From an uncultured Dehalococcoidia bacterium (GTDB lineage Bacteria; Chloroflexota; Dehalococcoidia; Bin125), in the NCBI GenBank assembly GCA_964347635.1, contig CAYFZI010000005.1, positions 4,613 to 68,612 on the forward strand: a DNA stretch of 64,000 bases. The letters are read 5' to 3'. The notes beneath the pieces are model-generated. The model was not told the origin of the DNA, did no database searches, and worked only from the letters and a program-made list of their open reading frames with translations. Shown one piece after another: positions 61,485-63,953 of the stretch. The stretch's first letter is position 1, and every line of letters starts with the position of its first letter. Position numbers and translations under genes: made by a program.

Positions 61485-61793
61485 ATGCCGGCTTACGACT
61501 ACCGCTGCGCGGAATGCAGCGACATCTTCGAACTGACTGCACGCATGGGGCAGGCCCCCGCCGATCCGGCCTGCCCCAAGGGCGACGGAGGCGTTGGTGC
61601 GCGCGTCTTCGGCGCCGGCGTCGCGATCCACACCGGCGCCGCCAGCTCCGGCGGCGGCGACTTCGATCTCGGCGGCATGGACGACATGGGCGGAATGGGC
61701 GGCATGCCTGACATGGGCGGCATGCCCGGCATGGGCGGCCACGGCCACGATCACGGCCACAGCCACGACGACTTCGATTTCGACGACTTCTAA
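61485..61793 (+). CDS. FmdB-family zinc-ribbon protein with GGM-repeat and His-rich tail
   Basis: GGGGAGGAG RBS; MPAYDYRCAEC...FE......CPKG; tail GGMDDMGGMGGMPDMGGMPGMGGHGHDHGHSHDDFDFDDF. Confidence 0.85.
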   Translation: MPAYDYRCAECSDIFELTARMGQAPADPACPKGDGGVGARVFGAGVAIHTGAASSGGGDFDLGGMDDMGGMGGMPDMGGMPGMGGHGHDHGHSHDDFDFDDF

Positions 61794-61800
61794 GCCCCGC

Positions 61801-62118
61801 CTCTTCGAGCGCTACGCGATCCGCGGCGACAGCATGTCGCCGACGCTGCGGCCCGGCGACCAGCTCTTGACCCTCTCGAGCCGCTGGCTTGCGCCGGCGG
61901 TTGGCAGGATCGTCGTCTTCCGCGAGCCGCGCGCGGCCGGGCGGCGCTCAGTCAAGCGCGTCGTCAGCCGCGAAGCCGAGGGTTGGTTTCTGCTCGGCGA
62001 CCAGCCCGCGCGCAGCACCGACAGCCGCGTCTACGGAGCGGTGGCCGACGACGCGATCGAGGCGGTCGCGCTCTGCCGCTATGCGCCGCTGCGGCGCCTG
62101 GCCTGGCTGCTCGGCTGA
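61801..62118 (+). CDS. S26-family peptidase resembling the Ni-SOD maturation protease (SodX-like); start uncertain
   Basis: [12 protein letters not shown] (catalytic Ser), VKRV (catalytic Lys), GDQ...STDSR.YGAV. No ATG/GTG/TTG lies between the FmdB stop and the catalytic Ser. Confidence 0.75.
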
Positions 62119-62202
62119 GCGCTGTAGCGGGCTTGACGTTGCGCCGCGCCCCGCTGGGGCGGGGACTTGCGCACGCGGGTGGAGTGCGCAACAATCTCTC
62201 CG

Positions 62203-62229
62203 TTGGCACTCGCTGTCTGAGAGTGCCAG
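62203..62229 (+). promoter_or_regulatory. CIRCE element (HrcA operator)
   Basis: TTGGCACTC-N9-GAGTGCCAG versus consensus TTAGCACTC-N9-GAGTGCTAA, upstream of groEL. Confidence 0.9.
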
Positions 62230-62345
62230 CCGCGCCGACCGCGCCTGGTCCAGCTCTCCAGCCGCAAACGCGCAACCTGTACGGCACCAGCGGAACCATC
62301 GGTCTGCACGGGCAGGCCGTGATCAATCAAGGAGATGAGACCGAG

Positions 62346-63953
62346 ATGGCCAAGGCACTGCTGTTCGACGAGGAGGCCCGCCAGGCCCTGCGCGAGGGAA
62401 TCGACGCGCTGGCCGACGCGGTCAAGATCACGCTCGGCCCCAAGGGCCGCAACGTTGTGCTCGCCAAAACCTTCGGCGCGCCCACGATCACCAACGACGG
62501 CGTCACGATCGCCCGCGATATCGACCTCGAAGAGCCGTTCCACAACATCGGCGCACAGCTCGCCAAGGAAGTCGCCTCGAAGACCAACGACATCGCCGGC
62601 GACGGCACCACCACCGCGACAGTGCTCGCTCAGGCGATCGTCAATGAGGGCATGCGCAACGTCGCCGCCGGCGCCAACCCGATGGCGCTCAAGCGCGGCC
62701 TCGAGCGCGGCGTCGAGGTGCTCTCCGACCAGATCCGAGACAACGCAGCGCGCGTCACCACCCGCGAGCAGATGTCCCAGATCGCCGGCATCTCCGCCGC
62801 CGACCCAGCCATCGGCGAGCTGATCGGCGAGGTCATGGAGAAGGTCGGCAAGGACGGTGTGATCACCGTCGAAGAGGGCAAGGGAATCCGCTCCGAGGTC
62901 GAGTATGTCGACGGCATGCAGTTCGACCGCGGCTATATCTCGCCCTACTTCGTGACCAACCCCGACCGCATGGAGGCCGAACTCGACGACCCCTACATCC
63001 TCGTCACCGACAAGAAGGTCTCCGCCGTCGCCGACATCCTGCCGTTGCTTGAGAAGGTCCTCAAGGTGACCAAGAACCTGGTCATCATCGCCTCCGATGT
63101 GGACGGCGAAGCGCTCGCCACCCTCGCCGTCAACAAGCTGCGCGGCACCGTCAACGTGATCGCCGTCAAGGCGCCCGGTTTCGGCGACCGCCAGAAGGAC
63201 AACCTCGGCGACATCGCGACCCTCACCGGAGGCACCGTGATCAGCGAGCAGCTGGGCGGCCAGCTGGAGACGGCCGAAATCTCCGACCTCGGCCGCGCCC
63301 GCCGCTTCGTTGCCAGCAAGGAAGCCAGCACGATCATCGAGGGCCGCGGCGAGGCCGGCGCGATCGATGAGCGCGTCAACCAGATCCGCCACGTCTATGA
63401 CCAGGCCAAGAGCGACTGGGACCGCGAAAAGGCGCAGGAGCGGCTCGGCAAGCTCTCCAACTCCGTCGCCGTGATCAAAGTCGGCGCGGCCACCGAGGTC
63501 GAGCTCAAAGAGCGCAAGCACCGCGTTGAGGACGCGCTCTCCGCGACCCGCGCGGCCGTCGAAGAGGGCATGGTGCCCGGCGGCGGCGTTGCGCTGATCA
63601 ACGCCATCCCCGCCCTCGCCGGCGTCGAGCTCGACGGCGACGAGGCCACCGGCGTCTCGATCCTCAACCGCGCCCTCGAAGAGCCGATGCGTCGCATCGC
63701 GATCAACGCCGGCCAGGACGGCTCGGTGATCGTCCAGTCCGTCAAGGACAGCGAAACCACCAACTGGGGCTACAACGCGGCCAGCGACGAGTACGGCGAC
63801 ATGATCGAAATGGGCATCGCGGACCCCGCGATGGTCACCCGCGCCGCGCTCGAAAACGCCGTCTCGATCGCCGGCATGGTGCTCACCACCAACTGCCTGG
63901 TGACCGAGAAGCCCGAAGACACGCCGGCGCCGGCTCCCGCGCCCGCCTACTAG
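62346..63953 (+). CDS. groL: Chaperonin GroEL
   Basis: [60 protein letters not shown]. Confidence 0.97.

Follow-up and report, generated by a model that had tools for sequence, protein, structure and literature searches.

Why should a small zinc-ribbon protein of the FmdB family, drawn out into a tail of Gly-Gly-Met (GGM)-type repeats and alternating histidines, be encoded next to an S26 peptidase and a groEL gene in an uncultured Dehalococcoidia bacterium? The three genes lie near one end of the window, by which we mean the whole 64-kb stretch of DNA that was analyzed (contig CAYFZI010000005.1 of assembly GCA_964347635.1), in a draft genome (2.45 Mb, 93 contigs, 95% complete) whose close relatives are metagenome-assembled genomes (MAGs) labelled Dehalococcoidia or Chloroflexota. 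The answer that we favor, with a probability of roughly 0.4, is that the FmdB-like protein may be a lineage-specific, metal-binding accessory of superoxide dismutase (SOD) maturation, encoded in what would be the remnant of a nickel SOD (Ni-SOD) locus. The metal-handling or proteostasis module that the first-pass annotation had proposed for these genes is upheld in part: gene linkage, the conservation of the tail, the identity of the peptidase as SodX and the presence of the Ni-SOD gene, sodN, at sister loci all speak for it, but its chaperonin component finds no support.

The gene order recurs among relatives, as the first-pass annotation had anticipated: the FmdB and peptidase genes are syntenic in 22 of the 23 loci of the same family (the 23rd ends at a contig edge), groEL follows downstream in 20 of these 23, and all three genes are present at each of a further 42 loci from Dehalococcoidia. 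In every family member examined, the FmdB gene adjoins the SOD locus on its upstream side, whichever of the two types of SOD is encoded there. In four sister genera (g9, g2, g5 and g6; loci L029, L035, L036 and L037), sodN is located between the FmdB gene and the peptidase gene, on the opposite strand, and the coordinates give the same FmdB-sodN-peptidase arrangement in 8 genomes of these genera. Because sodN separates the two genes in the sister genera, the metal-handling reading is strengthened.

The peptidase itself is identified as SodX, the protease that matures Ni-SOD, from its family, its phyletic pattern and its neighborhood. As predicted, an S26 peptidase is encoded between the FmdB gene and groEL (PF10502, 54.1 bits), and its best or near-best NCBIfam match is TIGR02754, the family of Ni-SOD maturation proteases, the cut-off of which is passed by 6 of 10 orthologs, including two from the genus of the window (63.9 and 70.3 bits). 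The catalytic dyad, Ser14 and Lys55, is invariant in an alignment of 23 peptidase sequences (alignment A2), along with G12, M15, P17, R56, G69, D70, S75, D77, S78 and R79, and the within-genus dN/dS ratio of sodX is in the range of 0.19 to 0.45. Among 41 related genomes, 27 encode the peptidase and 28 encode sodN: all 27 peptidase-bearing genomes carry sodN (adjacent to the peptidase gene in 8 genomes of the family), and 13 of the 14 peptidase-less genomes carry none, the exception being G029, in which sodN is present with no match to the peptidase query. Among 20 sodN loci that represent other families of Dehalococcoidia, 16 have the peptidase gene beside sodN. The SodX-like character surmised in the first-pass annotation is thus borne out by the family match, the catalytic boxes and the co-occurrence with sodN. 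The window peptidase is the sole SodX-like protein of its genome, and it is predicted to cleave the SodN leader, which ends in V-S-A, in front of His1 of H-C-D-L-P-C-G.

The features of the locus to which we refer below are the following (all on the + strand):

61485..61793, +: FmdB-family zinc-ribbon protein of 102 amino acids (aa); open reading frame (ORF), PF09723 and TIGR02605 above their cut-offs, conserved in all 20 relatives of the alignment
61485..61607, +: core of the zinc ribbon, residues 1-41, which has three Cys, the place of the fourth being taken by Asp (sequence, alignment A1, model confidence of about 90)
61671..61739, +: Gly/Met/Asp/Pro-rich repeats, residues 63-85, 2-6 GGMP-like units, variable in number among species and strains
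61740..61766, +: His motif HGHDHGHSH, residues 86-94, the best-conserved part of the tail
61767..61790, +: acidic/aromatic C-terminus DDFDFDDF, residues 95-102 (ORF and alignment)
61792..62118, +: frame for a SodX-like S26 peptidase of about 105-108 aa, offset by +1 from that of FmdB (PF10502, 54.1 bits)
61831..61833, +: codon AGC for the catalytic Ser of the GDSM box, followed by the ATG from which a database gene call begins
61954..61956, +: catalytic Lys codon of the K-R box (K55 and R56 invariant in alignment A2)
62203..62229, +: inverted repeat of the CIRCE type (controlling inverted repeat of chaperone expression; HrcA operator) 5' of groEL, core GCACTC-N9-GAGTGC at 62206-62226
62346..63953, +: groEL paralog without groES, with a Pro/Ala tail ending in PAY (TIGR02348, 773 bits)

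The FmdB-like protein, with its GGM repeats, His run and DDFDFDDF end, is encoded as first described, and its ribbon indeed lacks the fourth cysteine: the only Cys residues are C8, C11 and C30. The profile matches begin at the initiator Met, as in other members of the FmdB family, and cover residues 1-37 for PF09723 (Zn_ribbon_8; 41.1 bits against a cut-off of 34.4) and residues 1-49 for NCBIfam TIGR02605 (FmdB family; 39.4 bits against 31.3). Of the two C-x-x-C knuckles, about 17 residues apart, that characterize the family, the first is present (C8-x-x-C11) and the second reads C30-P-K-G-D; in the sister genera g3, g7, g9 and g2, the C-x-x-C of the second knuckle is retained (alignment A1). 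In an AlphaFold2 model built with an alignment of 20 relatives, residues 1-41 form a three-stranded ribbon with a per-residue confidence score (pLDDT) of about 90, the three-Cys core of the window protein being predicted still to fold as a ribbon. Residues 45-102 are a low-complexity, degenerate C-terminal tail of the kind seen in the family and are unstructured in the model, with pLDDT below 50 for residues 45-79.

Part of this tail is strongly conserved. G84, D89 and H90 do not vary among the 20 aligned relatives, and H86, H88, G91, H92 and H94 are shared by at least 90% of them; H-x-H-D-H-G-H(-x-H) is the most conserved segment of the tail, and the repeat region, by contrast, differs among the 20 sequences in both length and composition. 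The first-pass annotation had named an unconserved low-complexity tail, together with a lack of linkage of the three genes, as what would undo its case, and the near-invariant His columns contradict such a tail. In genus g5, the repeats are acidic (Asp/Phe/Leu/Gly) and without Met, and the number of repeats differs even between strains, with a 24-nucleotide (nt) in-frame deletion at 61718 in a related strain (run X4). The within-genus dN/dS ratio of the FmdB gene is between 0 and 0.27. The GGM-type string and the HxHxHxH string occur once each in the six-frame translation of the 64-kb window, and among the 8 FmdB paralogs of the genome, only the window copy carries the GGM/His tail. Two FmdB paralogs are encoded in tandem, about 200 nt apart, on contig C21 (G000:C21:14713-15154; L007/L012).

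The history of the locus can be traced with a GroEL tree (26 rows, with family f38 as the outgroup), in which genome G011 and genera g9 and g2 are basal and genera g1, g8, g3 and g7 form one clade with support of 100/99. In the basal genera, sodN is part of the locus and SodX bears a hydrophobic N-terminal segment; the segment is present in g9, g2, g5, g6 and g10 and is absent in the window. In the derived clade, the locus is devoid of sodN, and SodX begins about 8-10 residues ahead of GDSM. We infer that sodN was lost in one deletion that also took the intergenic region it shared with sodX, together with the sodX 5' end. An intermediate arrangement is seen in genus g10 (L033, genome G017), where the FmdB gene is directly followed by a sodX that encodes the hydrophobic N-terminus and has its own start codon, with sodN on another contig. 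In two loci of family f38, the order is sodN-sodX-groEL with no FmdB gene within 3.5 kb, indicating that the adjacency of sodX and groEL predates the arrival of the FmdB gene.

The absence of sodN reported in the first-pass annotation is correct for the window, in which no reading frame of the six contains the motif, but not for the genome, in which sodN is found on contig C2, encoding a leader that ends in V-S-A before H-C-D-L-P-C-G, with no peptidase gene beside it. The genomic sodN product is 28-37% identical to those of the locus-resident sodN genes of sister genera, and the sequence comparison suggests that the unlinked gene may be a replacement copy, gained by acquisition or relocation. 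It is located at positions 1462-1887 of L001 (G000:C2:52306-55659), beside a tRNA-Arg(TCT) gene at 2002-2078. Searches of the genome for Fe/Mn SOD and Cu/Zn SOD were negative, as were those for urease (above the cut-off), NiFe hydrogenase, NiCoT and HupE/UreJ, so that Ni-SOD is the only nickel user detected among those searched.

The only well-assembled family member that lacks both sodN and the peptidase gene is G011 (genus g4), in which the locus order is thiamin pyrophosphokinase, His-tailed FmdB, Fe/Mn SOD, an HDOD gene and groEL. This swap ties the FmdB gene more firmly to superoxide dismutase and at the same time weakens the case for a strictly nickel-specific role; it is also compatible with a conserved site at which one SOD gene can take the place of another. 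The HDOD/HD-domain gene at positions 1977-2916 (-) of this locus (L157) appears to be split into two overlapping ORFs, 2389-2916 and 1977-2540, which may reflect a frameshift or an assembly error.

The truncated sodX of the derived clade shows an unusual relationship with the FmdB frame. In the window, not a single ATG, GTG or TTG occurs from the FmdB stop codon (61791-61793) to the catalytic Ser codon; the 12 genomes of genera g1, g3 and g8 share no conserved start-codon position in this interval, and 7 of the 12, that of the window included, have no such codon there whatever. All 12 start-less genomes have sodX displaced by +1 from the FmdB frame, with spacers of 32, 44, 62, 71, 77 and 149 nt, and the changes in spacer length, at least 6 of them, are all multiples of three. 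The analysis of frames covered 41 loci, with L088 left out on account of a failed motif search. Thirty loci have a start codon of sodX itself (ATG, GTG or TTG) 8-12 codons ahead of the Gly of GDSM; in these, frames 0, 1 and 2 are represented by 10, 9 and 11 loci, respectively, and in the GroEL tree this own-start clade is nested within the start-less clade. Most simply, translation of SodX would begin within the FmdB reading frame or carry on from it, a constraint that would have been lifted once a start codon arose.

Candidates for the mechanism are a +1-frame start in the last 2-25 codons of the FmdB gene and +1 recoding at the FmdB stop. Potential starts in the 3' end of the FmdB gene are ATG or GTG in some genomes, but the window offers only ATT or ATC; a +1-frame ATT is found in 12 of the 12 start-less genomes, yet also in 20 of the 30 own-start loci. 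Since the spacers are unlike one another, the FmdB-sodX junction shows no sign of a conserved slippery site or of a structure downstream. No Shine-Dalgarno-like site was found at sodX, a promoter and terminator scan of 61300-62400 returned zero sites, and the word share for the region in RNA runs was at most 0.09. The junction is matched without indels by Logan contigs from 4 runs in 2 studies; given that independent contigs of four runs agree, it is not an assembly error.

Other explanations of the frame relationship were tried and set aside. A fused FmdB-S26 protein is not represented in the searched sequences, in which no S26 homolog of at least 190 aa was recovered at E <= 1e-10 (weak evidence), and the one apparent fusion, the 245-aa representative P0026, changes into the +1 frame partway through the gene, which we read as an assembly error. 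An overlapping membrane anchor of SodX in the +1 frame of the GGM repeats does not fit either, as the frame opens variably and one genus is almost without repeats, nor does a +1 slip on CCC-G within the repeats, as genus g3 has no Pro codon there. The stored gene call for the window S26 protein is 94 aa long, beginning at the ATG after the Ser codon and covering 87% of the query, and the calls in relatives of the same genus range from 94 to 125 aa. The SodX annotation in the start-less clade is probably truncated or inconsistent, and judging by the catalytic residues, a 94-aa product lacking the Ser would be an inactive enzyme.

The first-pass annotation described the downstream GroEL correctly: it begins at 62346, 552 nt past the FmdB stop, and ends in PAPAPAPAY without a GGM or His tail. 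The protein scores 773.5 bits against a cut-off of 582.1 with the equivalog profile TIGR02348; the Gly/Met-rich tail that it lacks is typical, not defining, of GroEL. The 42 related loci include 38 complete GroELs, every one of which ends in PAY, and the second GroEL of the genome, encoded in a groES-groEL pair on another contig, is also without a canonical GGM run. The CIRCE core is present 5' of groEL in 42 of the 42 related loci, the genome contains 4 CIRCE sites, including those in front of groES-groEL and of hrcA, and HrcA itself is encoded (252.9 bits against a cut-off of 197.2); the groEL gene is therefore regulated independently, as part of an HrcA/CIRCE regulon, and looks like a syntenic neighbor, an ordinary heat-shock gene rather than a partner.

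Putting these observations together, the stretch would be what remains of an SOD maturation locus in a Dehalococcoidia genome. SodX would cut the leader of the Ni-SOD precursor to free His1 for the nickel hook, with groEL as a separate, HrcA/CIRCE-controlled heat-shock gene that has neighbored sodX since before the family arose. The FmdB gene would have joined the SOD locus at the base of the family and stayed. The feature of the tail under selection is likely to be the alternating His motif, set between the Met/Gly-rich and acidic segments. The most plausible function would be for this tail to bind Ni(II) and buffer it or pass it to newly processed SodN beside SodX. In the clade of the window, sodN and the 5' end of sodX, including the membrane anchor, would then have been deleted, leaving SodX with a substrate gene that is now elsewhere and with a translation dependent on the FmdB frame, either through a non-canonical or overlapping start in the 3' end of the FmdB gene or through +1 recoding. 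It is also conceivable, although improbable, that the FmdB-like protein and SodX form one translational unit, joined by a +1 shift at the FmdB stop or by a non-canonical start, to yield a nickel-loading protease. If so, a tethered or stoichiometric tail would hand Ni(II) to the His1 amine as SodX exposes it; this would be the first dedicated Ni-SOD metallochaperone, and the coupling of frames would stand in for the lost promoter, ribosome-binding site and membrane anchor.

Several observations weigh against an accessory role in SOD maturation. The window SodX, at 59.0 and 60.6 bits, falls below the TIGR02754 cut-off of 63.25; the FmdB gene is beside sodN-sodX in none of 4 loci from other families and in none of the 20 further sodN loci; its linkage is limited to one family and could go back to a single ancestral event; and in the sodN-containing arrangement, it is convergent with sodN and not co-operonic. 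Ni-SOD has reportedly been activated heterologously by sodN and sodX alone, which makes an extra factor not obligatory, and the role of the tail is deduced solely from its composition and gene neighborhood. Finally, the His-bearing FmdB of G011 is kept without any Ni-SOD, contrary to strict nickel specificity, and FmdB tails rich in Gly and Met and ending in Asp/Phe occur in unrelated contexts. These points would be accommodated, with a likelihood that we consider rather low but far from negligible, if the FmdB-like protein had a general, SOD-independent role common to its Gly/Met-tailed relatives in other Dehalococcoidia and were a neighbor by descent, the flanks of the locus simply not having been rearranged within this one family. 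A profile search of 1.84 billion representatives returned 5007 FmdB-type matches at E <= 0.001 (33 at E <= 1e-10), and among 60 of these sequences that were inspected, many have Gly/Met/Asp-rich tails ending in Asp/Phe, with His runs in some only; ends like that of the window protein are also seen on His-less relatives from other families. In 20 fetched regions with a tail-matching FmdB, the gene is near neither sodN, the peptidase gene, groEL nor an SOD gene, except in G011, which belongs to the family, and the neighbors outside the family are varied (UvrA, a phosphotriesterase, an M50 protease, DXR and others). The 8 paralogs in the genome point in the same direction. Descent without function would not, however, account well for a gene that stayed at the locus through the loss of sodN, the truncation of sodX and the replacement by Fe/Mn SOD, for a sodX frame locked to that of FmdB in 12 genomes, or for a near-invariant His motif that is missing from most relatives outside the family: among 401 sampled genomes of the class, tail-matching FmdB proteins from f16 and other families are mostly without it (the class tallies count one unpublished genome, G262, on which no claim depends).

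The accessory role has further competitors. A regulator or sensor, in which the ribbon and tail would sense metal or redox state and control the adjacent sod genes and possibly groEL, is improbable, and slightly more so than the single translational unit. The family has historically been labelled 'putative regulatory protein', and an association that spans Ni-SOD and Fe/Mn SOD fits superoxide stress better than one metal; the control of groEL, however, is explained by HrcA/CIRCE, one zinc ligand is lost in the genus of the window, and no DNA-binding domain was found in the protein by Pfam or NCBIfam profiles. A Foldseek comparison of the model with the PDB gave zero matches at E <= 0.001, and the weak look-alikes, all at E > 0.1, are small zinc-ribbon transcription factors such as RbpA, which we treat as a lead only. 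That SodX is dead or decaying, with translation from the ATG after Ser (94 aa) or none, and that the +1 relation arose by chance, carries a smaller probability still. The missing canonical starts, the stored gene call and the lack of any promoter-like or Shine-Dalgarno-like site found would suit a decaying gene; against it, the sodX frame is free of stop codons in all 12 start-less genomes and its dN/dS ratio is low, as given above, the G-D-S and upstream residues are conserved, with Ser kept in other genera despite a codon-family switch from AGC to TCC/TCG, the spacer changes hold the frame whereas the own-start clade uses all three, and the genome, whose sole detected SOD needs leader removal, has no second SodX-like gene. 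Least probable of all, and very unlikely, is that the FmdB-like protein supplies in trans the GGM/His tail that both GroELs lack, as the first-pass annotation suggested in calling it a trans-acting chaperonin partner. The missing tails, the uniform PAY ends and the downstream position of groEL in 20 of 23 same-family and all 42 further loci could be cited in its favor, but the independent CIRCE at every locus, the hrcA gene and three further CIRCE sites that make up a classical regulon, and the f38 order without FmdB speak against it. So does the position of Gly/Met-tailed FmdB genes elsewhere, which are not beside groEL.

The accessory role that we prefer can be set against several known systems. 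With typical SodX (TIGR02754), the window peptidase shares a minimal S26 domain of about 100 aa, the Ser of GDSM, the Lys of the K-R box and the GDN..S.DSR box, but its gene is unlinked from sodN and without a canonical start, and the protein lacks the hydrophobic N-terminus and scores below the family cut-off. With the FmdB family, for which we know of no assigned function, the window protein shares the N-terminal zinc ribbon of about 40 residues beginning at the initiator Met and the degenerate low-complexity tail; unlike its relatives, it combines a His motif, GGMP-like repeats and an Asp/Phe end with the replacement of the fourth Cys, and genes of the window type hold a fixed place beside the SOD locus. 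In FmdB proteins of other phyla, the tails are mostly Cys-rich or Ser/Ala-rich. The His segment on a flexible C-terminal extension recalls the nickel-binding tails of UreE, HypB, SlyD, Hpn, Helicobacter GroES and GroEL1 (His-rich tails are found on Helicobacter GroES and mycobacterial GroEL1), as does the position of window-type genes next to maturation genes of a nickel enzyme; here, however, the carrier is a 40-residue zinc ribbon rather than a GTPase, a peptidyl-prolyl isomerase or a chaperonin, the client would be Ni-SOD, and metal binding is presumed. The tails of GroEL (GGM) and eukaryotic Hsp70 (GGMP repeats that end in a short acidic motif) resemble residues 63-85 and 95-102 as disordered Gly/Met(/Pro) repeats of matching composition, but the carrier in this case is an unrelated small protein, the number of repeats is not conserved, and similar FmdB tails are encoded far from chaperone genes. 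The HrcA/CIRCE regulon, with its GCACTC-N9-GAGTGC repeat before groEL, groES-groEL and hrcA, shows nothing unusual, and the CIRCE before groEL sets this gene apart in regulation from the two upstream genes.

In cyanobacteria, sodN, sodX and sodT are described as co-localized (PMC4284471), and the available portions of two others mention Ni-SOD solely under Nur regulation (PMC7055735, PMC11672702). The excerpts of the literature that the searches returned describe the SodX protease, the SodT transporter and the Nur regulator, with no dedicated Ni-SOD metallochaperone found in them; no link of an FmdB-type protein to Ni-SOD was found in the literature searched. A CbiX-like protein is known in Streptomyces. 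The route of nickel to Ni-SOD in cells is unsettled, and a small protein with a conserved His motif, its gene tied to the SOD locus in bacteria for which Ni-SOD is the sole SOD detected, is a concrete candidate that can be tested cheaply. The locus also provides the first reproducible functional neighborhood for the large, uncharacterized FmdB family, exposes an annotation problem, in that the stored SodX call begins past the catalytic serine, and offers a natural experiment on translational coupling, with the frame held while sodX is start-less and drifting after the gain of a start.

Some further observations concern other FmdB proteins. A separate subfamily (L159, L165 and L167; P0038, P0096 and P0148) has the tail motif W-S-H-F-G-H-S-H-G-x-G-x-G-G-H-x-H, which, from its sequence, is probably another metal-binding tail. 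In a Dehalococcoidia MAG (L139, contig CAUYXJ010000001.1), the tail of an FmdB protein contains GGMP-like repeats, six in number, and an Asp/Phe end but no His motif, and sodN, the S26 peptidase gene and groEL are all absent within 4 kb.

Upstream of the FmdB gene, the window differs from several sister loci. In genera g5, g6, g10 and g4, the thiamin pyrophosphokinase and FmdB genes adjoin directly; in the window, they are separated by two genes, a metallo-beta-lactamase-fold/alkyl-sulfatase-like gene at 60101-61402 (-) and an ORF of 405 aa at 58880-60097 (+), the product of which has a hydrophobic N-terminus and is without a Pfam or NCBIfam match. Elsewhere in the window, between 32000 and 36000, the GC skew, at first positive, turns negative near 33-34 kb, at the peak of the cumulative skew. 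A switch related to replication or an altered gene orientation could underlie the change.

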